From Escherichia phage vB_EcoS_WFI, in sequence record NC_073058.1: 45,536 nt of DNA; one strand, given 5' to 3'. Of the stretch, positions 2,294 to 45,157 are shown in pieces (position 1 is the stretch's first letter; every line of letters starts with the position of its first letter). The notes under the pieces were generated by a model. It ran no database searches, was not told the origin of the DNA, and was given only the letters and a program-made list of their open reading frames with translations. The translations under genes were made by a program, and so were the position numbers.

Positions 2294-2584
2294 ATGGATA
2301 AGCTAAACGAGTGGTTATTCGCCCTCGCGTGTCTTGCAGGTGGCTTCGTTGGCGCTCGCATTCACGGTGAGGCAACGAAAGGGCCGCTAAATTTTGTGTT
2401 GTTTATCGTGGTCGGCTTCTTGTGCGCCGTGTTTGGGGCACCAGCTATTGCCGAGTGGTTTAATCTAACCGGACCGAGAACTGTCGCCGGTCTTGGCTTC
2501 GTAACGGCAATCTTCTGGATGCCGGTCGCCGCCAGAATCCGTGAAGCAATTTCCTCGTTCCGTCTGCCGGGGAATGCAAAATGA
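2294..2584 (+). CDS. holin-like membrane protein (96 aa, about 3 TM segments)
   Basis: Three hydrophobic helices; immediately upstream of a second small membrane protein and the endolysin; ATGA overlap. Confidence 0.55.
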   Translation: MDKLNEWLFALACLAGGFVGARIHGEATKGPLNFVLFIVVGFLCAVFGAPAIAEWFNLTGPRTVAGLGFVTAIFWMPVAARIREAISSFRLPGNAK

Positions 2585-2820
2585 TTATCGCCATCCTGTT
2601 ATTAGTGATCGGGGCTTCGTCGCTGTATAACGTATACGCGCCATCCGTCCAGGATGGCATTTGCGGACGGGTGCTCTACCTGCTTACAGCAATGACCTGT
2701 ATTATTGGCCTGATGCAAACGGGGGACGTATCGAATACAGTCTGGTCCGTGCTAATCTGGCTATTCGCATTACGCACACTGCGTAATGCTGTTTTAAATG
2801 GGGTAAAACATGCGATTTAG
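2581..2820 (+). CDS. holin or antiholin-like membrane protein (79 aa, 2 TM segments)
   Basis: Two hydrophobic helices; overlaps the endolysin start. Confidence 0.5.
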   Translation: MIIAILLLVIGASSLYNVYAPSVQDGICGRVLYLLTAMTCIIGLMQTGDVSNTVWSVLIWLFALRTLRNAVLNGVKHAI

Positions 2821-3301
2821 TGACAACGGTCTAAGATTTACGGCAGCGTGGGAGTCGTTCAGCCCAGTGCCGTATTTCGCGACTAAGAAGGAGCAGGCCC
2901 GCGGCTTGTACACCTGGGGCTACGGTCATACTGGCACTAATCCGCCACAGAGCATTACCCGCGCGGAAGCGCTGGAGCTACTCAAGCGTGATGTGGCGTA
3001 TGCCGAGAACTGGGTGAACAAGTACGCACACCCGAGCATCAATCAGGCGCAATTCGACGCGCTGGTGGATCTGGTAATCAATGCCGGTCAAGGTCCGATC
3101 GTACCGGATAACATTGCCAATGACTTCGATGACGCGGTGCGCCTGGGTGATTGGGCCAAAGTCCGTGCTACGCTGCCGCAGTTCCGCAAGCAAGGCGGTG
3201 AAGTGCTCAAGGGCCTGGTACGTCGTGCAATCGGCAGACAGGCGCTATTCGATGGTAAGCAGTGGGACGTTGCCGAGAAAATCGGTCGTAACGCGGCATA
3301 A
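2810..3301 (+). CDS. endolysin, GH24 phage lysozyme-like
   Basis: Motif E...YTWGYGHTG typical of T4/lambda-type lysozymes; 163 aa; follows holin candidates. Confidence 0.75.
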   Translation: MRFSDNGLRFTAAWESFSPVPYFATKKEQARGLYTWGYGHTGTNPPQSITRAEALELLKRDVAYAENWVNKYAHPSINQAQFDALVDLVINAGQGPIVPDNIANDFDDAVRLGDWAKVRATLPQFRKQGGEVLKGLVRRAIGRQALFDGKQWDVAEKIGRNAA

Positions 3302-3317
3302 TAAGAGGAAACACAGT

Positions 3318-3731
3318 ATGTTAAAAAGTATTCTTGATCATAACGCCGACGCGCTCGCCGCGCTGGCTAAAACCGAAGACCCCGGCGCACGCGCTATTAT
3401 TGCGGACACTATCAGCCATGCGGGCGTCTTTGACGCGAAGCTGCCTAGCGTGCCGGAAAGTAAGCCGGTGGCAAGTGCGACCATAACCATCACACCGGAA
3501 TCCGCCGCAGTTGGTGCGAAGGCCACCGCTTCGGTTGAGGTCCAGCCACCCGACGCGACTAACAAGGCAGGGAAGTGGGTGTCGTCGAATCCCGCCTGCG
3601 CGGCAATCGATCAGACTACCGGCGAAATCACAGCCCAAACGGCGGGTAGCGCCCACATCTTTTGGGTGGCCTCCGATGGTAGCGGGGCGATGGCGTCCGC
3701 CATCTTCACCGTAACGGGGGCGGAAGAATAA
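3318..3731 (+). CDS. Ig-like (Big_2-type) domain protein, 137 aa
   Basis: ATG 3318 with RBS AAGAGGAAA; C-terminal half Ala/Thr/Ser/Val-rich, resembling bacterial Ig-like domains; the 3081 start in the ORF track was rejected. Confidence 0.55.
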   Translation: MLKSILDHNADALAALAKTEDPGARAIIADTISHAGVFDAKLPSVPESKPVASATITITPESAAVGAKATASVEVQPPDATNKAGKWVSSNPACAAIDQTTGEITAQTAGSAHIFWVASDGSGAMASAIFTVTGAEE

Positions 3732-3737
3732 AACCAC

Positions 3738-3764
3738 AAGCCCGGTTAATTCCGGGCTTTTTAT
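3738..3764 (+). terminator. rho-independent terminator
   Basis: AAGCCCGGTTAATTCCGGGCTT hairpin followed by TTTT. Confidence 0.6.
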
Positions 3765-3828
3765 TGCTTGACTTGCAACCAACATAAGGGCCATACTGCA
3801 ACCAATCAACGAGAAGGAGTAACACACT

Positions 3829-3909
3829 ATGACACGCAATGATATTTATGTACTGGCAATCTGGTCCGCCGCCGCATTCATCGGTATGGTTATTTGCGAA
3901 TTGCTATAG
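3829..3909 (+). CDS. possible 26-aa hydrophobic peptide
   Basis: Strong RBS GAAGGAG 9 nt upstream of ATG; MTRNDIYVLAIWSAAAFIGMVICELL; not in the ORF track because of size. Confidence 0.3.
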   Translation: MTRNDIYVLAIWSAAAFIGMVICELL

Positions 3910-3970
3910 CCCGCCGCCATAAGGACCGTGGTATATTGTCCCCGGACCCATAATCAGGAAGTAAATTAAT

Positions 3971-5113
3971 ATGCACCCTCAAACTAAAATTACCGACGAG
4001 CAATTGATCGCTGAATTGCAATCTGGCACTACCTCGAAAGATATTGCGAAGAAATACGGCATTGCCCTTCGAAATGTCTATATGCGCAAAGCCCGCCTGT
4101 CGAAGAAAGGCATTGGACACGGCAACGATGCTGTAATCCGCAAGCGCGTTGCCGATGGCTTCGGCGTTAAGCGTGTATCAGCCCTGGTGCGCGGCAATGG
4201 CGAAGAGGTCATGTCCTGGGTCATCACCGAGCAGGACAAGGAGCGCCAACTTGAAGCAATGCGCGCCGTTGTCGAGGGTATGAACAGCGAAATCACACCG
4301 GCAGCACCAGTGAGCGCTCCGCCAGTCCCGATCCAGGCGCTTGACCTGCTTAACCTGTATACCGTGTCGGACTTCCACCTGGGAATGTTGGCATGGGGCG
4401 AGGAGACTGGCGAAGACTGGGATATGGCAATCGCCGAAGACCTTTTCTACCGCTGGTTTGTCGAAGCCTTCGCCCGCGCGCCGGACGCTGGCACTGCCGT
4501 AATCAATATCCTCGGTGATATGGCCCACTTTGACAGCCTCGACGCCGTCACGCCAGCCAGTGGTCACGTACTGGACGCAGATACCCGCTACCAGAAACTG
4601 GTCCGCTACATGATTCGCATGGTGCGCAACGTGGTTGAACTGGCGCTGCAAAAACACCATAAGGTCAAACTGTTAATCGTCCAGGGTAATCATGATGAGT
4701 CCGGTATGATTTGGCTGGCTGAGATGTTCAATACCCTGTACGAGAACGAGCCGCGCGTTGATGTGGACACGTCCCCGGACGTTTACAAAATGGTGCAGCA
4801 CGGTAAAACAACGCTGTTCTTCCACCACGGACACAAAGCACGCTTTGACGCCATCGAACCGGTCATGATTTCTAAATTCAGACAGGCTTTCGGGTCCAGT
4901 GAGTACAGCTACGCGCACGTGGGCCACTTGCACCACCAGAAGATTGTTGAATCCCGCAACATGATTGTTGAACAGCACCGGACCCTTGCCGCGAAAGACG
5001 CATATGCGAGCCGCGGCGGTTGGATGTCTGGTCGTAGTGCTAACGTCATCACCTATAGCGCCAACTACGGCGAAGTAGCGCGCTTAACCATTAGCCCGGA
5101 AATGTTGAAATGA
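3971..5113 (+). CDS. calcineurin-like metallophosphoesterase with N-terminal HTH-like domain
   Basis: Phosphoesterase motif series DFHLG, GDMAHFD, QGNHDE, FHHGHK, HVGHLHH; N-terminal SKDIAKKYGIALRNVYMRKARL resembles an HTH. Confidence 0.6.
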   Translation: MHPQTKITDEQLIAELQSGTTSKDIAKKYGIALRNVYMRKARLSKKGIGHGNDAVIRKRVADGFGVKRVSALVRGNGEEVMSWVITEQDKERQLEAMRAVVEGMNSEITPAAPVSAPPVPIQALDLLNLYTVSDFHLGMLAWGEETGEDWDMAIAEDLFYRWFVEAFARAPDAGTAVINILGDMAHFDSLDAVTPASGHVLDADTRYQKLVRYMIRMVRNVVELALQKHHKVKLLIVQGNHDESGMIWLAEMFNTLYENEPRVDVDTSPDVYKMVQHGKTTLFFHHGHKARFDAIEPVMISKFRQAFGSSEYSYAHVGHLHHQKIVESRNMIVEQHRTLAAKDAYASRGGWMSGRSANVITYSANYGEVARLTISPEMLK

Positions 5114-5322
5114 TTAGACAAGTATTCATGAGCACGCAGGCCACCCGCCTGAAAGAGCTTCGCAAACAGCTTGAAGGCTTGCGCCGATTCGAACGAACGG
5201 CAGCGGCAATAGGCATGTCTATCAGTGAGCGGATCGAGATACTATCGCAGATACGCTACACAGAAGGCGCTATAAGCGAAGTAGAAAGCATGTTGACCAG
5301 ATACTACGGTCGTGCCGTTTAA
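5110..5322 (+). CDS. hypothetical protein (70 aa)
   Basis: ATGA overlap with upstream gene; followed by a terminator. Confidence 0.4.
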   Translation: MIRQVFMSTQATRLKELRKQLEGLRRFERTAAAIGMSISERIEILSQIRYTEGAISEVESMLTRYYGRAV

Positions 5323-5328
5323 CCCTCC

Positions 5329-5356
5329 CAGCCCGCCGATTTGGTGGGCTTTTTTG
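5329..5356 (+). terminator. rho-independent terminator upstream of the terminase genes
   Basis: CCAGCCCGCC-GATTT-GGTGGGCT stem followed by TTTTTT. Confidence 0.45.
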
Positions 5357-5439
5357 TGCCTGTTATAATCCCCCTTAGATGGCTGGGCCGTCTCCTATGT
5401 TGCCGATGGTCGGCGCATATGCATAAAAGGGCTTATATC

Positions 5440-5991
5440 ATGGCAGAAATCAAAGTTAAGGGCCGTCGTGCCAAACTGGACGGACGAGTAGCAGTTACCC
5501 CGCGCCGTAAACCAGGCGAGCAAACAGAACACACCAATCTTGGACCAGAGATCGAATACGGCAAGCGTCGTAAAGGCGGCAAATGCGGACGCCCGACCGA
5601 CTACCGCACCGTGTATTGTGACCAGCTTCGTCGCTATTTCGCCGATGCCGTAGCCTGGCAGATCAACTACTCCGACAAGGGCGCTGCGCAAGTCATCCCT
5701 CGAAACATGATGCCGACTCTCGGTCGATTCGCTGCAAATATTGGTGTAGGCATCGCCTGCCTGTATCGCTGGGCGCGCGCACATGAGGAGTTCGCCGAAG
5801 CGATGGCGGACGCTATGGAGTTGCAGAAAACTTTCCTGATGGAAGCTGGCGGCGTGACCATCGCGGCGGGCTTCGCTACGTTCCTGCTTAAAGCCAACCA
5901 CGGCATTCGTGACGATGCGCCGCTGGATGACGACGAAGATGATAACGGCGACGTCGTTGTGGAACCTACCGGCAAAGGCCAGGGTGAGTAA
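5440..5991 (+). CDS. terminase small subunit (putative)
   Basis: Directly upstream of and overlapping TerL (ATGA at 5991); basic N-terminus, acidic C-terminus; start at 5440 chosen over 5341 or 5419. Confidence 0.55.
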   Translation: MAEIKVKGRRAKLDGRVAVTPRRKPGEQTEHTNLGPEIEYGKRRKGGKCGRPTDYRTVYCDQLRRYFADAVAWQINYSDKGAAQVIPRNMMPTLGRFAANIGVGIACLYRWARAHEEFAEAMADAMELQKTFLMEAGGVTIAAGFATFLLKANHGIRDDAPLDDDEDDNGDVVVEPTGKGQGE

Positions 5992-7376
5992 TGCGTAACT
6001 ATGCGGCAGAACACCGCGCACTTGAACGCGCGATCGCAAAGCGCAACCGACCGCCACGCCCTACGCGCGTTGCGCAGGCCGTCCGCCTGTATCAGCCTGA
6101 TTGCCTTCCGCACCAGGTAGAACTGCTGCGCGACACGAAGACTAAAATCCTCGGCCTTTGCTCCGGCTTCGGTGGCGGAAAGTCGTGGGTAGCGGCGCGT
6201 AAGGTCATCCAGCTTCTCACACTTAACCCCGGTCATGATGGCATCGTTACAGAACCGACTATTCCACTCCTGGTTAAAATCATGTACCCGGAGCTTGAGA
6301 AGGCATTCGACGAGGCTGGATTCCGGTGGAAGTTCAACAAGCAAGACAAGATTTATAGCGTGCTGGTGAAAGGCAAATGGACCCGCGTTATTTGTGAGTC
6401 AATGGAGAACTACACCCGCCTGATCGGGGTTAACGCCGCGTGGATTGTTGCCGATGAGTTCGACACCACTAAGCAAGACGTCGCTATGGCGGCATATCAC
6501 AAATTGCTTGGTCGTCTGCGTGCGGGCCTGGTGCGCCAGTTCGTCATCGTATCCACGCCTGAAGGCTTCCGGGCGATGTACCAGATTTTCGAAGTGGAGA
6601 AGGATAGCCAGAAACGTTTGATCAGGGCGAAGACTACCGATAATCACCACTTACCGGCAGACTTTATCGACACGCTGCGGAGCCAGTACCCGGCAAACCT
6701 GATTGATGCATACCTGAACGGCCTGTTTGTCAACCTTACGTCTGGCGCGGTCTACAAGATGTTTAACCGCGAAGAGAACGCCAGCACCGAGGAAGTGCAA
6801 CCGGATGATACGCTGATTATCGGTATGGACTTTAACGTAACGAAAATGGCGGCGGTTGTGTACGTCAGACGGCAGCACACTACCGAGAACAAGGAGTTCC
6901 GCGACGAGATTCACGCAGTGGATGAATTCGTGGACCTGTTTGATACCCCGGCTATGATTGAGGCGATCGAGGAGCGCTACCCCGATCATTGTGCTGCCGG
7001 TCGGGTCGTCGTTTACCCGGATAGCAGTGGCAAGTCTCGAAAGACTGTTAACGCATCGTCGTCCGATATCGCGCAACTGGAAGACGCTGGCTTCGAGGTG
7101 GAGTATGACAGCGTCAACCCGCCTGTAAAAGACAGATTGATCGCGATGAATACGATGATGTGCAACTCGAAGGGCGTGCGCCAGTATTTTGTCAACATGG
7201 ATAAATGCCCTACACTAGCGAAATGTCTGGAACAGCAGGTTTATGACCTGAAGAAAGGCGAGCCGGATAAAACCGCCGGTGTGGACCACATGAACGATGC
7301 CGCGGGCTATCCAATTGCGCACCTGTTCCCAGTGATTCGTCCTATCGCCGTTGTTCCAACTGTTGACTTCTACTAA
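5991..7376 (+). CDS. terminase large subunit
   Basis: Walker A-like GLCSGFGGGKS and Walker B IVADEFD; 461 aa; position between TerS and portal. Confidence 0.85.
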   Translation: MRNYAAEHRALERAIAKRNRPPRPTRVAQAVRLYQPDCLPHQVELLRDTKTKILGLCSGFGGGKSWVAARKVIQLLTLNPGHDGIVTEPTIPLLVKIMYPELEKAFDEAGFRWKFNKQDKIYSVLVKGKWTRVICESMENYTRLIGVNAAWIVADEFDTTKQDVAMAAYHKLLGRLRAGLVRQFVIVSTPEGFRAMYQIFEVEKDSQKRLIRAKTTDNHHLPADFIDTLRSQYPANLIDAYLNGLFVNLTSGAVYKMFNREENASTEEVQPDDTLIIGMDFNVTKMAAVVYVRRQHTTENKEFRDEIHAVDEFVDLFDTPAMIEAIEERYPDHCAAGRVVVYPDSSGKSRKTVNASSSDIAQLEDAGFEVEYDSVNPPVKDRLIAMNTMMCNSKGVRQYFVNMDKCPTLAKCLEQQVYDLKKGEPDKTAGVDHMNDAAGYPIAHLFPVIRPIAVVPTVDFY

Positions 7377-30636: not shown

Positions 30637-31107
30637 CTATTGGTTGCAAGTAAATTTTGCTACGTTTATAGAATAAATTTTCGGGACCAGATCGCCGCAC
30701 GCGCGACGTATGGCTTCGATATTCTTCGGGCAGTCTTCAATGATGACCAGTTCGGACACGTCCGCATAGCACACCATTTTGAACACCGCGCACGCCTTAA
30801 ATTCCGGCGGTGGGGTGTCATCCAGCATGTGGCGCATGAACAACCGGCCTGTCGGGAATACTTTCAACTGTTCAGCGGTAGTCTCCCAGCATTCGCGCTG
30901 CCGGTTAGTCAGATACGCTATCTCGAAGCCTTGCTCTTTGTACATGCGCAGCAACGGCAGCATGTCCATGTTCAGGTCTTCGCGGACGTGCGCTTTGTGC
31001 CACTTCGCCCAAAAGGTTGATTTGGTTTTTATGCCGGGCACCAGGTCAGCACGCGCATCACTTGAACCATTAATAACGCCATCCAGATCACAAATCAGTA
31101 GTTTCAT
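30637..31107 (-). CDS. HAD-superfamily phosphatase (polynucleotide 3'-phosphatase or nucleotidase-like)
   Basis: N-terminal motif LICDLDGVI (DxDGT-type). Confidence 0.55.
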   Translation of the reverse strand: MKLLICDLDGVINGSSDARADLVPGIKTKSTFWAKWHKAHVREDLNMDMLPLLRMYKEQGFEIAYLTNRQRECWETTAEQLKVFPTGRLFMRHMLDDTPPPEFKACAVFKMVCYADVSELVIIEDCPKNIEAIRRACGDLVPKIYSINVAKFTCNQ

Positions 31108-31328
31108 TTTAAGCTCTCAATAAGGGTGTGACGGGCGCTTCGCGCCGTAAAGGAGTTGCATACAAAATGGCAACGCTTGGTTATGACAAGCCAACCGGTA
31201 AGGTCAAGGCCCATGATGGATTCGGGTCTGGATACGCGCATCACACGGTCGCGGCGCGGGTCGATGAAGAAGTCCCATTGCATTTGGTCTACTACCGCAG
31301 GGTCGCGGTCAACGATTAAGATATTCAT
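31104..31328 (-). CDS. hypothetical protein (74 aa)
   Basis: ORF track; ATGA overlap with downstream gene. Confidence 0.4.
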   Translation of the reverse strand: MNILIVDRDPAVVDQMQWDFFIDPRRDRVMRVSRPESIMGLDLTGWLVITKRCHFVCNSFTARSARHTLIESLK

Positions 31329-31794
31329 GTAGTTCTCTCTCGCTCATTATTTCAATTTGTGCGCTGCCGATGGGCGGCGCTTCGTCAAATATTATCAATT
31401 GCTGGCACTTGTTATTGCTCGGCCCAACTTCGCCGGTCACAGCATGGATGAATCGCACACGCCAGTCCAGAAGAATTATCATGTTTGCAGTCTTCCGGGC
31501 CAGCCTCGCCCACTTCGTCGATGTGTCTTGATTCAGTAGCATTACCGTCCGGCGTCCGTGCGCAGCACACTCGACCCACGGCAGCGGATCGGAGTACGGC
31601 GGGTTGCACCACTTCCACCCTTTCAACTCTGACCAGTCCGCATCAAGCGCGCTATGCTCTGCCGTGAAGTAGCGCGGTAGCAGGTGATTGGCGTCGCTTG
31701 CAGCCATATCGTAACGAAATCGGTACTTACGGCGCAGCGGTTTAAATAAAGCTGGCGGAGTGCGCCAGCTATCCTTTTGCTCACTCTTCTGCAT
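31309..31794 (-). CDS. phage-type DNA N6-adenine methyltransferase (Dam-like)
   Basis: Motifs WRTPPALF, DMAASDANH, and NPPYS. Confidence 0.8.
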   Translation of the reverse strand: MQKSEQKDSWRTPPALFKPLRRKYRFRYDMAASDANHLLPRYFTAEHSALDADWSELKGWKWCNPPYSDPLPWVECAAHGRRTVMLLNQDTSTKWARLARKTANMIILLDWRVRFIHAVTGEVGPSNNKCQQLIIFDEAPPIGSAQIEIMSERELHEYLNR

Positions 31795-35955: not shown

Positions 35956-38247
35956 TTACTTCCTGTACCGATACATAATGTCGCCTTCGGCGGCAAGTGG
36001 GAAACCTTTCGCCCATATAGGCAGGTCACACATCAGCGCGCAAAGCTCCTCGGTCGTGTAATCGTCGGTGTCCGGCACTTCGGTGATCAATTCATCGTGC
36101 ACTGACAGGACGATTTCATAGCCCGCAGCTTCAACACCAGGCATGGACCATGCGAGAATATCGCGGCACAACGCCTGTACGATGTTCTCCGTAAGTTTGC
36201 CGCCGTAGGTGTACTGGAATCCCCACTGGCGCGTCGTCTGATTCTCGCCCTGGTATTTGATGCGGGTACTGGTGCGCTTCTTGCCGGTGTCTTCGTCAAT
36301 CTCGGTAGTGACAGACAGCGCGATTCCGGGGTAGCTCATGATTCGCCCTGACGGCAACTCAACCTTCAGCCACCAGCCCGCGGCGTTCGGGTCGTCGCGT
36401 TCCTCGTCAAAGGTGGGGTCGTGCTTCGCCTTCGTGCGCACAATCTTGAGCGCTTTCTTGCCATCCGGGCGAACGTTCGCGCCAGCCCAGTATGCCTTAC
36501 CTGGATTGCGTATCGCACATAACACCGCCTCCTCAAGCTCGGCCCAAAAGGCTACGGTCTTCGGGTGAGATTCACGCCACATACGTTTGATCGCGTCGCA
36601 GGTCAACCACACGTTTTTAGGCAGTATGTAAGTCGGGCGCTCGTCTTTCTTGCCGGGCTTCGGCGGGCGCTTCGCTTCGTTGATGCGGGCAAACTCATAA
36701 CCGCGTTTAGCCGCCGCCCAAATATGATCGGGGAATGTTCCCTTCATGACGTCAGCCATTGCGTACAGGTCGAGGCCCAGGTTTTTAGCAAACTGCAAGA
36801 ACGCCGCGACGCCGCCACCATAGCCCAGTCCCAATTCACACGCCTTACCAATCTGGCGTAGGTCTTTGCGGTTGGCTTTGATGTAGTCCGGGTCAAGGCC
36901 AAACATCTTACCGGCAGTTTCACAATAGATATCGCGTCCGGCCTTAAACACCATAAGCGCGGTTTTCTCGCCAGCGATCCAGGCAAGGCCACGCCCTTCC
37001 ACGTTGGAGTAGTCCGCTACAACAAACTTCTTGCCCTTAGCCGGGATAATGCACCCGCGAACGGTCGAGGCGGTTAGCTTCGATATGTCATACGCCCAGT
37101 GCGCGGTCCCGCGTAACAGGGAGTTGATGCCGTTGGTGAGCATGTGCGACCGTACCCAAAACGAGACGTCGCTCTCACCTTCGCGGCGCTTAATCTTCCC
37201 TTCGTGGTCATCACTGTACTCGCCACGTGCCAGGTTTTGAGGCTGAAAGCCTTTACCGGCCCAGCGTAGTGTGCGCTTTGCCCCACCATACTGAAGACAA
37301 CCACGGCGGCGACCATCGGCAGAAAGACCATTGACGAGCGGATTGTATTTAGTCGATGCCGTTGATGACGCGCCGAGGCGCATTTCAATAAGCACTTTGC
37401 CCTCGTCGGGGAAGTCTGGATCTTCCAGCAAGTCATTCAGCGTGGATTTCTGCGCGTTGTGAATGGTGAACGCCGGGGCAATATCACGCAGGATTGGCAG
37501 GAAGTCATTACCGGTCAGTTTACCGCCGAACAGTTCCCAGGCTTCTTCCTTCAATTCTTCTTTGTGCACCTGCACCGCCTTGATCGCGGCGTTCGCCAGG
37601 TCAACGTCCACATAGAAGCCACGGTCGTTAATCAACTGGTCGATACGCAGGATTTCATCTTCCTTCGGTGAGTTGCCCCAGTCCGGTATTCGCCAGTAGA
37701 CTTCACGCATTGCGATAATATCCAGCGCGGCATAGCGCAGGAATTTAGCCCATTCTTCAGGGTGAGTCTCGCGCGTGTAGCGGCGGATTTTGTAGGTCTT
37801 AGGGGTCGGCTTACAAAATCGCTTAATCAGCGCCTTGCCTGCCTTATCCTTCGCGTGCTCTGCGTCAACGCCCAGCACCTGGCATTGCATATCGAGGCCA
37901 CCCGGCAGCGCGTGACGAAAGGCCATAATCATCGTATCTTCGATCTGGCTTACCGGCAGGTCGATGCCCCACTTTTCACGGATAACCAGGCGGTCAAACA
38001 GGAGGCCGTTAGCCATCACTATTTTTGCTTTCTTGCGGGTTACCTGGCGTAGCGCCTTGCGCAGTTCACGCGGCATCGTGGGGGATTCAGTGGCGTCCCA
38101 TGTCTGCACGCGGCCCTCGTCGATGGCGTAGGTGCAAATCATAATCTCGGTGGATGGGTGTTCTGCATAGGCATACGCACCTGCTTTCTTCAGGTCCACC
38201 CCGCTATATGTCTCGGTGTCAAGAAACAGGCGTTCGAAGTCTTTCAT
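35956..38247 (-). CDS. DNA polymerase I (family A) with 3'-5' exonuclease domain
   Basis: Exo motif FLDTETYS; polymerase motifs RDIYCETAGKMFG, KACELGLGYGGG, LSVHDELITEV. Confidence 0.9.
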   Translation of the reverse strand: MKDFERLFLDTETYSGVDLKKAGAYAYAEHPSTEIMICTYAIDEGRVQTWDATESPTMPRELRKALRQVTRKKAKIVMANGLLFDRLVIREKWGIDLPVSQIEDTMIMAFRHALPGGLDMQCQVLGVDAEHAKDKAGKALIKRFCKPTPKTYKIRRYTRETHPEEWAKFLRYAALDIIAMREVYWRIPDWGNSPKEDEILRIDQLINDRGFYVDVDLANAAIKAVQVHKEELKEEAWELFGGKLTGNDFLPILRDIAPAFTIHNAQKSTLNDLLEDPDFPDEGKVLIEMRLGASSTASTKYNPLVNGLSADGRRRGCLQYGGAKRTLRWAGKGFQPQNLARGEYSDDHEGKIKRREGESDVSFWVRSHMLTNGINSLLRGTAHWAYDISKLTASTVRGCIIPAKGKKFVVADYSNVEGRGLAWIAGEKTALMVFKAGRDIYCETAGKMFGLDPDYIKANRKDLRQIGKACELGLGYGGGVAAFLQFAKNLGLDLYAMADVMKGTFPDHIWAAAKRGYEFARINEAKRPPKPGKKDERPTYILPKNVWLTCDAIKRMWRESHPKTVAFWAELEEAVLCAIRNPGKAYWAGANVRPDGKKALKIVRTKAKHDPTFDEERDDPNAAGWWLKVELPSGRIMSYPGIALSVTTEIDEDTGKKRTSTRIKYQGENQTTRQWGFQYTYGGKLTENIVQALCRDILAWSMPGVEAAGYEIVLSVHDELITEVPDTDDYTTEELCALMCDLPIWAKGFPLAAEGDIMYRYRK

Positions 38248-42892: not shown

Positions 42893-45157
42893 ATGAGCTT
42901 AATTAAATTCGCAGTAACAAGACCCGCTAAAAAAGGCGAAAAAGCCAGGGCGGAAAACTTCGAGATGACCACTGATGAGTTTTTCGAATTTATCAATGAT
43001 GCGAAAGAAATCTCCTCGGTGCACATCAACAAGACTGAAGATAAAGCCGAGTATGCGCGCCGCAAGCGTAAGGCCGATGGCATCGTGGCCTATACCAATG
43101 ATGGGTTACGCCGCAAGACCAGTGCGGTCGACCGCTCGATCCTGTTCTTCGATATTGACCGCACCGACACCCGCACATTACGCCGCTGCCGTAAAGCGTT
43201 CACCGACGCTGGTCTGGAGCATGTATTCCACACCACGACCGGCGACCGTCACCCACTGAAAGGCGGCACACGTTGCGCCCGTTTCCTGGTGCTCACTGAC
43301 AAGCCTGTACCGGCTGAAGACCTGGGCCGCGTCCAGTATGCATTGTTAGACCAACTGGGCTTGTCAGATGTGGACTTCGACGATTGTACAAAAGACACAA
43401 ACCGCCTTATGTACCTGCCTCACCAGCAGTCTGTCATAAAGTGCCACTACGGCAAGCGCGCCCGTGTCCGTCGTCTGCTTCGCCTGGCGGATAAGCTGGG
43501 AGTGGAGAAAGAGGAAGTGCGCCGCGAACTGACCCAGGGCGACGACGGCGTGGCGGACGGGATTCTGGATTGGTGCTTCCAGGCTGGCTTTGAACCACTG
43601 TCATCCGGTCGCGGTTATGAAGTGCCTTGCCCGAACGAGCACCTGCATAGCGGCGGCGGGTCGACGGCTATCATGGTTAAGGATGGCGAGATCCGTTTCA
43701 AGTGTATGCACACCGGCAACGAATGCTGTTCCGAACTGAATAAACACCAGCACCTGGCGTTACGTCTGATTGGTATCCCGGACCACTTGAACGTCGAGCC
43801 ACACAACATGTCACGCAAGCAAATCGCCGCAATCCTTCCGGGACTGGACGACGAGGAAGTGGAATCGTGCTATGAACATATTGTTGATGCGGTCGGAGAC
43901 GGCGACGAGTACGGCGAATGCACCGACGCTGACCTGGACAACGAGCCGGTCGCTCTGTTCAGTAAGCACGACCCGATTATCGAAGGCCTGGTCAACTTCA
44001 AATCTACCTGGTATATGGCGGGTGAGTCGAACATTGGTAAGTCGTTCTACGTGCTGGGCCAGATGGGCGCTGTTGCCGCGGGGATTCCGTTCGGTGGCGC
44101 GAAGGTCGTCCAGTCGCATTGCTTCTATTTCGATGCGGAAGGTGGCGAAGCCTCCAACCAGCGTAAGGAAGCATTGCAGATTAAATACGAGCACGACCTC
44201 GACAAGCTGCACATTATCGACCTGCAATCACGCGGCTGGGATATTACCAGCAAGTCAGGCTTGCGCGAGGTTATCAGCTTTATCAACCGCACCGCTAACG
44301 GGGAGCCGGTTGGCCTGGTGGCCTTCGACTCACTCAACCAGACTGTAGCGCTGCGGTCCGCTGATGCCAAACCGTTCGACGAGAACAACGCAAGCGATAT
44401 GGGTGAAGTGGTCAAAGCGCTGAAGTCCATTGCGGAAAATACAGGCGGCAGTGCGGGCGTCATCCATCACCCGGCTAAGGGTGCAAACGGCAGCAGATCC
44501 CCACGCGGGTCCGGCGCGCTTCATGGTGCTGTCGATTCTGCGTTCTTCCTGGAACAGCCGGACGATAATCAGCCAGGCCAACTCAACCTGTATCACGAAA
44601 AATCCCGTAACGGCATCAAGCAAGCGCCGCGTGGCTTCGTCCTGCTCAAGTGCAAAGTTAAGGTGGATCTCCGTAAGTCTGATGCGTTCGAAGCCCACCA
44701 GTCCACCAGCACCGGGCCAGACTTCGGCGATGTGGTTGCCGGTTGGGACGTCAAGCCAATTGCATCCACGCCACGCGACGAGACTCTCTACCTCGTACCG
44801 GTCGCCCTGGCACCGTTCGCTATCGAACAGGCTAAGGCAGCAGGCAAGGCCGCAGTTAAGGAAGAGAACACCGCCGGACCGCGCAACGAGAAAGAGAAGG
44901 TGCTTTATGCGGCACTGGAAAAACTGATGGAAGATAACCCGGACCATACTGGATTCAGTAAATCGGCAATTGTCCGCCAGGCTGGACTTGCGAAAGGTGG
45001 CACATCGACGAAGGCAATTGACGATATGGTGGAGCGCGGCGTGCTCGGGTTTTATACAGATCCACACACCGGGGCCATCTATGGGTCGTCGAATCTGGTC
45101 ATCAAATCGGATATACCCATCACGCTTTCAGCGACCGATGATGACTTAAAAGATTAA
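42893..45157 (+). CDS. primase/helicase fusion (primase-polymerase-like N-domain plus RepA-like RecA-fold ATPase)
   Basis: N-terminal ILFFDIDRTD and HVFHTTTGDRHP; C-terminal Walker A GESNIGKS and motifs VAFDSLNQ, VIHHPAKG. Confidence 0.6.
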   Translation: MSLIKFAVTRPAKKGEKARAENFEMTTDEFFEFINDAKEISSVHINKTEDKAEYARRKRKADGIVAYTNDGLRRKTSAVDRSILFFDIDRTDTRTLRRCRKAFTDAGLEHVFHTTTGDRHPLKGGTRCARFLVLTDKPVPAEDLGRVQYALLDQLGLSDVDFDDCTKDTNRLMYLPHQQSVIKCHYGKRARVRRLLRLADKLGVEKEEVRRELTQGDDGVADGILDWCFQAGFEPLSSGRGYEVPCPNEHLHSGGGSTAIMVKDGEIRFKCMHTGNECCSELNKHQHLALRLIGIPDHLNVEPHNMSRKQIAAILPGLDDEEVESCYEHIVDAVGDGDEYGECTDADLDNEPVALFSKHDPIIEGLVNFKSTWYMAGESNIGKSFYVLGQMGAVAAGIPFGGAKVVQSHCFYFDAEGGEASNQRKEALQIKYEHDLDKLHIIDLQSRGWDITSKSGLREVISFINRTANGEPVGLVAFDSLNQTVALRSADAKPFDENNASDMGEVVKALKSIAENTGGSAGVIHHPAKGANGSRSPRGSGALHGAVDSAFFLEQPDDNQPGQLNLYHEKSRNGIKQAPRGFVLLKCKVKVDLRKSDAFEAHQSTSTGPDFGDVVAGWDVKPIASTPRDETLYLVPVALAPFAIEQAKAAGKAAVKEENTAGPRNEKEKVLYAALEKLMEDNPDHTGFSKSAIVRQAGLAKGGTSTKAIDDMVERGVLGFYTDPHTGAIYGSSNLVIKSDIPITLSATDDDLKD

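Follow-up and report, generated by a model that had tools for sequence, protein, structure and literature searches.

The genome of Escherichia phage vB_EcoS_WFI (NC_073058.1), whose 45,536 nucleotides (nt) are called the window below, i.e. the whole stretch of DNA that was analysed, carries between its lysis genes and its packaging genes a gene for a protein of 380 amino acids (aa) in which a helix-turn-helix (HTH) segment is fused to a metallophosphoesterase domain. We studied this protein (the enzyme), the cassette that its gene forms with a following open reading frame (ORF) of 70 aa, and homologous loci in other phages and in prophages. The enzyme was found to belong to PHROG 704, a widespread family of calcineurin-like metallophosphoesterases, and it may be the nuclease that degrades the host chromosome in several groups of siphophages. 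The gene is not a new entity, as thousands of genomes have it in their annotation; it belongs to a known kind, the phage metallophosphoesterase nucleases.

Layout and transcription signals of the cassette

Several Dhillonvirus (HK578-like) phages have DNA with 98% identity to the locus region, and a megablast search of the window against 5,426 complete E. coli genomes returned zero matches, so that a prophage origin was rejected. Judged from these comparisons, the window is a complete Dhillonvirus genome and thus that of a virulent siphophage; terminal redundancy was searched for in the window and none was found.

The coordinates of the cassette and of its surroundings are compiled in Table 1. 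The start codon of the 70-aa ORF overlaps the stop codon of the enzyme gene as ATGA, suggesting translational coupling, so that the coupled pair listed in a first-pass annotation of this DNA is indeed present. Both are real genes under purifying selection: the ratio of nonsynonymous to synonymous polymorphism (pN/pS) within the genus is 0.02-0.06 in the enzyme gene, and in the 70-aa ORF it is 0-0.28.

Table 1. Features of the cassette, its flanking operons and one distant gene of the window
Feature	Position	Strand	Remarks
Two holin-like ORFs	2294-2820	+	upstream of cassette
Endolysin gene	2810-3301		upstream of cassette
Immunoglobulin (Ig)-domain ORF	3321-3731	+	after endolysin
Intrinsic terminator	3738-3759	+	closes lysis/Ig-ORF unit; stem of 8 pairs and T-run
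Sigma-70-like promoter candidate TTGACT-18-CATACT	3768-3797	+	promoter scan, 9/12 matches; before 26-aa ORF
26-aa hydrophobic mini-ORF MTRNDIYVLAIWSAAAFIGMVICELL	3829-3909	+	strong ribosome-binding site GAAGGAG
Putative promoter region of enzyme gene	3923-3948	+	extended -10 TGGTATATT (3929-3937) within imperfect inverted repeat GGACCG...CGGACC
HTH-metallophosphoesterase gene (380 aa, ATG)	3971-5113	+	PHROG 704 'DNA repair exonuclease'
Tri-helical HTH, residues 5-46	3983-4108	+	predicted sigma-70 region 4 / LuxR-GerE type
Beta-hairpin (residues 64-88; G77, W83) and helix (90-106)	4160-4288	+	between HTH and catalytic domain
Metallophosphoesterase catalytic domain, residues 121-380	4331-5110	+	five motifs and family loop 192-206
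70-aa ORF (ATG)	5110-5322	+	phrog_20931; Dhillonvirus-specific accessory
Intrinsic terminator	5330-5350	+	closes cassette; 9 pairs and TTTTTT
Putative extended -10 TGTTATAAT (perfect) of terminase operon	5361-5369	+	downstream boundary of cassette
TerS gene	5440-5991		downstream of cassette; 5440 is the likely start
TerL gene	5991-7376		downstream of cassette
HAD phosphatase gene	30637-31107	-	same PHROG as T5 Dmp (phrog_415, E 1.1e-36)

The cassette is flanked by two hairpins with T-runs, as had been proposed. The calculated folding energies are -15.0 kcal/mol for the upstream terminator (z = -3.4 versus shuffled sequences) and -15.2 kcal/mol for the downstream terminator (z = -2.7). The region has no more terminator-like sites than chance would give (3 against 3.1 expected). 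Both terminators are nevertheless credible because of their exact intergenic placement and because the annotation of WF5505 has terminators at the same positions, one of them between the post-endolysin ORF and the enzyme gene. The downstream terminator is also retained in locus L004, which is devoid of the 70-aa gene.

The TG-extended -10-like box that had been noticed near position 3930 was located at 3929-3937. The pattern TGNTATAWT occurs at only two sites in the window, TGGTATATT and TGTTATAAT, both of them intergenic and on the plus strand, and this number is at chance level (1.8 expected). The 13-mer CCGTGGTATATTG, which lies upstream of the enzyme gene within the inverted repeat of Table 1, is unique in the window and invariant in seven Dhillonviruses despite diverged flanks. 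The 5′-leader of the enzyme gene does not fold unusually (z = +0.59); an RNA structure is therefore unsupported, and an element acting at the DNA level is likelier. Together with the two terminators, the conserved box upholds the description of the cassette as an insulated transcription unit. The second site, TGTTATAAT, lies 11 nt past the downstream terminator and about 70 nt ahead of the likely TerS start, and its sequence suggests that a separate promoter of the host type serves the packaging operon.

The segment 3768-3909, which lies between the upstream terminator and the TGGTATATT box, includes the promoter candidate and the mini-ORF of Table 1. Similar sequence is present in two Dhillonvirus loci (L003 and L088) and absent from three others (L004, L087, and L089), indicating that the segment is an indel cassette that is optional in the genus.

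The 70-aa ORF encodes a basic protein (pI 10.1) that matches phrog_20931 (E 8.8e-48), a PHROG without an assigned function; it gave no PADLOC match and no significant Pfam match. A tblastn search found it in 73 phage records, all of them Dhillonvirus-like and always directly after the enzyme gene, compared with about 153 records that contain an enzyme of at least 90% identity. In L004, which encodes a 98%-identical enzyme, the stop codon is followed directly by the terminator. Among 46 loci of other lineages with a close next gene on the same strand, these next genes fall into at least 25 unrelated clusters. The first-pass annotation had regarded the ORF as a small partner gene. Its patchy presence in Dhillonviruses alone, its absence from L004 and the unrelated genes elsewhere contradict a conserved functional partner; on these sequence comparisons it is an optional, genus-specific accessory that is dispensable for the enzyme, and its product would stand outside the core mechanism proposed below. 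A further twist would be that this basic protein modulates or restrains the enzyme in Dhillonviruses.

A widespread family of HTH-metallophosphoesterases

With an E value of 5.9e-161, the enzyme aligns with the phrog_704 profile nearly end to end, its residues 5-380 covering positions 2-390 of the 390 in the profile. The family name 'DNA repair exonuclease' is no more than an annotation label, and the architecture of HTH, hairpin and metallophosphoesterase domain is common to the family. Escherichia phage Bas83 encodes a protein with 100% identity (gp70, 'DNA repair exonuclease'), and further named members of PHROG 704 are found in HK578, Sodalis phage SO-1 (gp58, annotated as 'putative transcriptional regulator'), TLS (gp66), and the Kagunavirus fPoEco01 (gp23). 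The identity is about 75% to homologues of the Guernseyvirinae (Kagunavirus and Jerseyvirus), 55% to those of Jedunavirus, and 43-47% to those of the T1-like Drexlerviridae (47% for TLS gp66). Homologues also occur in phages of Vibrio, Rhizobium, and Campylobacter as well as in prophage-like loci of Pseudomonas, Rhizobiales, Burkholderiales, Xanthomonadales, and others. The family comprises 3,708 clusters at 90% identity and 4,638 representatives at 50% identity (E <= 1e-3), and it was found in 2,061 of 50,697 phage records. In Drexlerviridae the gene order exonuclease-holin-endolysin-spanin persists in 508 of 522 genomes (PMC13164509), so that the gene is near-core in this family; it is also frequent in records of Guernseyvirinae and Dhillonvirus. 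These groups include many candidates for phage therapy, and few enzyme genes of enterobacterial siphophages that still await characterisation are as widespread as this one.

Structure prediction and the analysis of conservation were based on 52 aligned homologues (32-48% identity). The AlphaFold2 model has a predicted local distance difference test (pLDDT) score of 91.6 and contains an HTH (residues 9-45) and a catalytic domain (residues 121-380), in line with the domain fusion that had been read from the sequence. The three HTH helices (residues 9-17, 22-29, and 33-45) have pLDDT values of about 93-95 and are followed by a disordered linker; residues 1-60 are basic (pI 10.4). In the hairpin that precedes the catalytic domain, G77 and W83 are nearly invariant.

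The catalytic motif set is complete, i.e. D134-x-H136, G182-D183 (with H186), G239-N240-H241-D242, H286, and G318-H319-x-H321. All canonical metallophosphoesterase residues are invariant or at least 90% conserved, and D134, H136, G182, D183, N240, H241, H286, G318, and H321 are invariant. A family-specific loop, VTPxSGHxLDADxR (residues 192-206), is conserved as well. The profile searches gave a divided result for the earlier assignment to the metallophosphoesterases. The scores for the Pfam models remained under the curated cut-offs (PF00149, 20.0 versus 21.5 bits; PF12850, 22.1 versus 27 bits), and just 12 of the 52 family members match PF00149 with E <= 0.01; the divergence of the family is too great for these models. 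The phrog_704 match, the invariant motifs and the beta-sandwich metallophosphoesterase fold of the model sustain the assignment, and on these grounds we confirm that the enzyme is a member of the calcineurin-like superfamily. NCBIfam and PADLOC searches with the enzyme gave nothing significant, and a sequence search of the PDB yielded only spurious matches to repeat proteins and weak HTH matches, so that direct sequence homology to a PDB entry was rejected.

The invariance of the metal-binding and catalytic residues in the 52 homologues and the low pN/pS argue for catalytic competence. We therefore predict that the enzyme is an active nucleic-acid or nucleotide phosphodiesterase, and this is much more certain than the role in host DNA breakdown proposed below.

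In structure comparisons the best matches of the model are SbcD and Mre11, to which the catalytic domain is most similar, and nuclease-type proteins rank first. This ranking bears on the idea that the enzyme hydrolyses small molecules, i.e. cyclic oligonucleotide immune signals, Ap4A-type dinucleotides, or deoxynucleoside tri- or diphosphates, and serves counter-defence or the control of nucleotide pools. A conserved DNA-binding HTH would be hard to explain for such an enzyme, no cyclic-nucleotide phosphodiesterase or anti-defence family was matched in Pfam, NCBIfam, PHROGs, or PADLOC, and the near-core persistence in Drexlerviridae would be unusual for an anti-defence gene. We thus consider it improbable. 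In the literature on escaper mutants (OLD, Retron-Eco7, ApeA, Metis, PUA-Cal-HAD, KpAvs2, and Tmn), no mutation maps to the enzyme gene; the Dhillonvirus trigger of Retron-Eco7 is not named there. The published description of an anti-Tmn protein (ORF35, rod-shaped helices and a beta-sheet) gave no link to the enzyme or to the 70-aa ORF.

The HTH of the enzyme itself matches Pfam models weakly (GerE, E=0.015, below the cut-off). It is clear in other members, which match Sigma70_r4_2 and GerE with E values as low as 1.5e-9 and 2.4e-8, respectively, but also HTH_23 and HTH_28. In the PDB, the family profile matches GerE (E 0.012), RhlR, DesR, and sigma-H. The N-terminal domain is thus predicted to be of the sigma-region-4/LuxR kind, with the qualification that several HTH families are matched. 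Its probable function is to anchor the enzyme on DNA, and an interaction with RNA polymerase or with the promoter of the enzyme gene itself is less likely.

Gene neighbourhoods and the proposed role

The location of the gene had been described as not typical for such an enzyme. The comparison of loci does not bear this out. In every Dhillonvirus locus inspected, and likewise in several prophages, the gene adjoins the lysis cassette or the terminase genes, and the persistent gene order of the Drexlerviridae was mentioned above. In TLS the order is HNH-gp66-holin-endolysin, in Jedunavirus the gene lies between primase and terminase genes, and in prophages it often lies shortly ahead of TerS/TerL or of a Q-like antiterminator. 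A site at the boundary of early and late modules, beside lysis or packaging genes, is the norm for the family.

This junction would also suit a different function, namely that of a protein phosphatase similar to the Ser/Thr enzyme NinI of phage lambda, or of an HTH regulator, with the enzyme domain in a secondary role, that reprograms host or phage transcription at the switch from early to late genes. The gene directly precedes a Q-like antiterminator in seven loci, its HTH is predicted to be of the sigma-region-4/LuxR type, an imperfect palindrome covers its own -10 box, SO-1 gp58 is annotated as a regulator, and the T5 protein A1 is reported to affect transcription (bioRxiv 10.64898/2026.04.02.716235). 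The enzyme has neither the signature of the PPP Ser/Thr phosphatases (GDxHG / GDxVDRG / GNHE) nor the PPP fold subclass, and we regard a phosphatase or regulator of this kind as very improbable.

The genes that follow the enzyme gene in other lineages are more informative about its role. In the Guernseyvirinae (Kagunavirus and Jerseyvirus; loci L005-L015), a gene for superinfection immunity (Imm), the metallophosphoesterase gene, and its downstream genes interrupt the tail module, where they are encoded on the opposite strand and separate the genes for the tail tube from those for the tail chaperones. As an island on the opposite strand, the Kagunavirus cassette would be expressed apart from the late genes. 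In most of the sampled Guernseyvirinae loci the downstream genes encode a HAD phosphatase and a deoxynucleoside monophosphate (dNMP) kinase; in fPoEco01 (L085, 4627-6542) two small hypothetical ORFs are found instead. The HAD phosphatase, which is the next gene in Guernseyvirinae and in Jedunavirus and often overlaps the stop codon of the enzyme gene, belongs to phrog_415 (E 3.1e-65; Pfam HAD_PNKP), and the dNMP kinase gene follows it. For the proteins of phrog_415 that consist of a phosphatase only, 'polynucleotide kinase' is a misleading label.

Other lineages have other enzymes of nucleotide metabolism in the next position, i.e. a 5'-dNMP phosphatase of phrog_318 in prophages of Rhizobiales, a dNMP kinase in Roseobacter, and a protein similar to nucleoside-2-deoxyribosyltransferases in Lysobacterales and others. 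In a phmmer census of 129 loci, 20 have a gene for deoxynucleotide processing no more than 1.5 kb from the enzyme gene. It is downstream and on the strand of the enzyme gene in all 20, and often it overlaps the stop codon. This raw count is a lower bound because single-sequence seeds were used. The linkage occurs in phage and prophage groups that are not related to one another, namely Guernseyvirinae, Jedunavirus, Rhizobiales, Roseobacter, Lysobacterales, and Marinobacter. In Drexlerviridae, polynucleotide kinase and dNMP kinase are the commonest genes after the 'exonuclease' (PMC13164509). The window encodes a HAD phosphatase of phrog_415 elsewhere (Table 1), i.e. the type of gene that forms one operon with the enzyme gene in other lineages, and a functional link of the two proteins may be inferred.

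From these neighbourhoods, and from the analogy to T5 A1 discussed in the last section, we propose the following role, to which we give an even chance. The enzyme would be a two-metal DNase of the Mre11/SbcD/PolD-DP1 branch of phosphodiesterases, flexibly linked to a sigma-4/LuxR-type HTH that holds it on DNA, and encoded by an autonomous unit. A promoter of its own for the host RNA polymerase and the flanking terminators would make the timing of the cassette independent of the lysis and packaging operons. The analysis establishes the structure and conservation of the gene, the motifs, the fold class, and the neighbourhoods; we infer that the substrate is DNA, that the target is the host chromosome, that the products are dNMPs, and that the gene acts at a time of its own. 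The dNMPs would then be re-phosphorylated by dNMP kinases or dephosphorylated by Dmp-like HAD enzymes, so that the nucleotide pool is supplied or controlled and the host is shut down. T1 and TLS are known to degrade the host genome and to reuse its nucleotides, and the responsible gene products are unidentified according to the authors (PMC11447400).

As the main alternative, the enzyme could act on phage DNA in recombination or replication, i.e. as an Mre11-like nuclease that processes ends or opens hairpins and flaps. Its tasks would be recombination-dependent replication, maturation of concatemers, or repair of damage by restriction or RecBCD, and the HTH would replace Rad50/SbcC in engaging the DNA. 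SbcD and Mre11 as best structural matches fit this alternative, and genes for a RusA-like Holliday-junction resolvase, HNH/endonuclease VII, a PD-(D/E)XK exonuclease, or a DNA polymerase adjoin the enzyme gene in several lineages; in TLS it follows genes for a helicase, a Dam methylase, and an HNH protein. However, no gene for a Rad50/SbcC/SMC-like ATPase adjoins the enzyme gene in the window or among the annotated downstream genes of the inspected loci, the Gp2.5-like single-stranded DNA-binding protein (SSB)/annealase and the PD-(D/E)XK exonuclease of the window form a module far off on the other strand, and the recurrent downstream genes act on mononucleotides and not on DNA ends. Recombination as the main task therefore seems rather unlikely to us. 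The phage T4 proteins gp46/47 serve both in recombination and in the breakdown of host DNA, and the two roles thus need not exclude each other.

Several points weigh against degradation of the host chromosome as the main role. The searched literature contains no biochemical or genetic data on any member of the family, and Dhillonviruses are reported to be resistant to ApeA, a sensor of dinucleotides from DNA breakdown. The linkage to nucleotide enzymes is seen in only 16% of the loci, a phmmer search of the window found no dNMP kinase, and the Dmp-like gene of the window is 25 kb away from the enzyme gene. The neighbouring resolvase, HNH/endonuclease VII, exonuclease, and polymerase genes named above point to recombination or replication. 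In addition, a place after the lysis genes is unexpected for an early function, and a relation to T5 A1 can be traced only at the level of the superfamily.

If the enzyme is a nuclease that degrades host DNA, a question about T1 and TLS that has been open since 1981, i.e. which gene degrades the host genome, would be answered. A knock-out of the gene would stop host DNA breakdown and should yield high-frequency generalized transducers. This expectation agrees with the classical mutants of T1 from Drexler's work in which degradation of the host chromosome is impaired (Roberts & Drexler 1981, cited in PMC11447400). The gene would offer a handle on the risk of generalized transduction by therapeutic phages. 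The enzyme would also be a likely source of the nucleotide signals that several newly described defence systems sense, and a knock-out should alter the visibility of the phage to sensors of DNA-breakdown products (Metis, PUA-Cal-HAD, and ApeA). If it is a recombination nuclease instead, it would be an Mre11-type enzyme that works without Rad50 and engages DNA by its HTH. Beyond the existing annotations, the analysis adds that the presumed partner is dispensable, that the location is typical, that the DP1/proofreading label discussed below is unlikely, and that a specific role can be tested.

Some observations concern other genes of the window. It has replication genes of its own, i.e. for a PolA-family polymerase, a helicase, a primase-helicase, the Gp2.5-like SSB, and the PD-(D/E)XK exonuclease, all of them on the minus strand except for the primase-helicase gene (42893-45157, +). 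In the family-A polymerase ORF (35956-38247, minus strand, 763 aa), the Pfam model DNA_pol_A covers residues 393-482 only, and a PHROG 'endonuclease' profile matches residues 465-559; this polymerase may harbour an insertion or an unusual domain. In the ORF 3321-3731 (+), an N-terminal segment of 48 aa (phrog_11068) is joined to an Ig-like domain, which is unusual for a gene of a lysis cassette. In WF5505, EP23, and SO-1 the same post-endolysin gene is limited to about 55 aa and has no Ig domain, and the counterpart in Ioannina is annotated as an Ig-like domain protein. A 74-aa ORF (31104-31328, minus strand) is located between the genes for a DNA methyltransferase (31309-31794) and the HAD phosphatase. 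By length and gene order alone, it fits the description of Ksap1, a Dhillonvirus protein that activates the Klebsiella defence system Avs2 (PMC11564622).

Comparison with known systems

The sequence identity of the enzyme to Mre11/SbcD and to T4 gp47/gp46 is about 14-18%, and 188-193 residues of SbcD/Mre11 could be aligned with the model. Mre11 and SbcD have a C-terminal capping domain and a Rad50-binding region; neither is seen in the enzyme, the chain of which ends with the catalytic domain at residue 380, and which has the N-terminal HTH and the beta-hairpin instead.

DP1, the 3'-5' proofreading exonuclease of archaeal PolD, has 14% identity to the enzyme. An independent annotator obtained an HHpred probability of 99.6% to DP1 for a Kagunavirus homologue, a result that speaks for the nuclease branch proposed above, and a re-annotation of TLS as well as some GenBank labels imply a stand-alone 3'-5' exonuclease that aids a DNA polymerase. 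T1 and TLS carry a homologue of the enzyme and yet have no DNA polymerase gene (PMC11447400), which argues against the labels 'proof-reading exonuclease' and 'DNA polymerase II small subunit'. DP1 has a partner, DP2, and no DP2-like protein accompanies the enzyme; in the window, a distance of about 31 kb separates the enzyme gene from the PolA gene, which is encoded on the other strand. Sequence searches of Pfam, NCBIfam, and the PDB gave no DP1-type oligonucleotide/oligosaccharide-binding (OB) fold beyond the HTH and the metallophosphoesterase domain. Taken together, proofreading is the least credible of the functions considered here.

In phage lambda, the metallophosphoesterase gene ninI is positioned just before the late-gene regulator Q, and some members of the enzyme family resemble NinI in occupying the slot just before a Q-like gene. 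A similar role to the one proposed here has been described for Gp48, a cluster A metallophosphoesterase of mycobacteriophage A10ZJ24, which damages host DNA and silences defence genes (PMC12287305). Gp48 has five motifs and phosphodiesterase activity, is expressed early, and is toxic by loss of host genome integrity (PMC12287305). The two proteins are likened by description; Gp48 belongs to another host and phage group, and no HTH fusion has been described for it (PMC12287305).

A functional parallel is A1 of phage T5. This protein, predicted to be a metallophosphatase, shows features of nucleases of double-strand break repair and proofreading, and degradation of host DNA both requires A1 and is brought about by A1 alone (bioRxiv 10.64898/2026.04.02.716235). 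Like the enzyme, it is predicted to be a two-metal phosphoesterase with a complete motif set and resembles Mre11-type and proofreading nucleases. The A1 gene shares the pre-early gene cluster and the strand with dmp, and Dmp, a deoxynucleoside-5'-monophosphatase, is a HAD phosphatase of phrog_415 (E 3.6e-57), i.e. of the PHROG found in one operon with the enzyme gene elsewhere. In contrast, A1 belongs to PHROG 1745, is longer (556 aa, of which about 165 form an insertion), and is part of the first-step-transfer programme of the Demerecviridae, in which it is also needed for DNA transfer.

In profile searches A1 matches phrog_1745 only, and the enzyme matches phrog_704. An hhalign comparison of the enzyme-family profile with the single A1 sequence aligned 19 columns with a probability of 17%, and the comparison of the two family profiles gave 51% over the N-terminal module. 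When the domains were compared separately, the values were 63% for the N-terminal and 49% for the catalytic module (E ~1e-4), co-linear but marginal over both modules. A reciprocal Foldseek search with a model of the A1 family (pLDDT 88.8) placed the best BFVD representative of the enzyme family, A0A248SKI9, at rank 21 (E 0.035). All of these signals are marginal, the hhalign probabilities are below the level of membership, and an assignment of the enzyme to the A1 family was rejected. The A1 family, for its part, is not confined to proteins like those of the Demerecviridae: relatives of about 530 aa (P0343-P0385), mostly metagenomic, are without the T5-type N-terminus and carry Pfam HTH domains (HTH_23, HTH_38, HTH_7, and CENP-B type), an architecture parallel to that of the enzyme.

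On present evidence the enzyme would thus work like A1 without being a member of its family, and in T1-, Jersey-, and HK578-like siphophages it would have the function that A1 has in T5 and gp46/47 have in T4. A wider proposal, which we make tentatively and hold to be possible rather than probable, is that the PHROG 704 enzyme is the general destroyer of the host chromosome in these virulent phages, carried in a portable module for degradation and processing together with Dmp-like phosphatases and dNMP kinases, and that this module has either converged on the A1-Dmp pair of T5 or is anciently related to it. If so, the logic of A1 and Dmp would be a general modular strategy of phages and not a peculiarity of the Demerecviridae.

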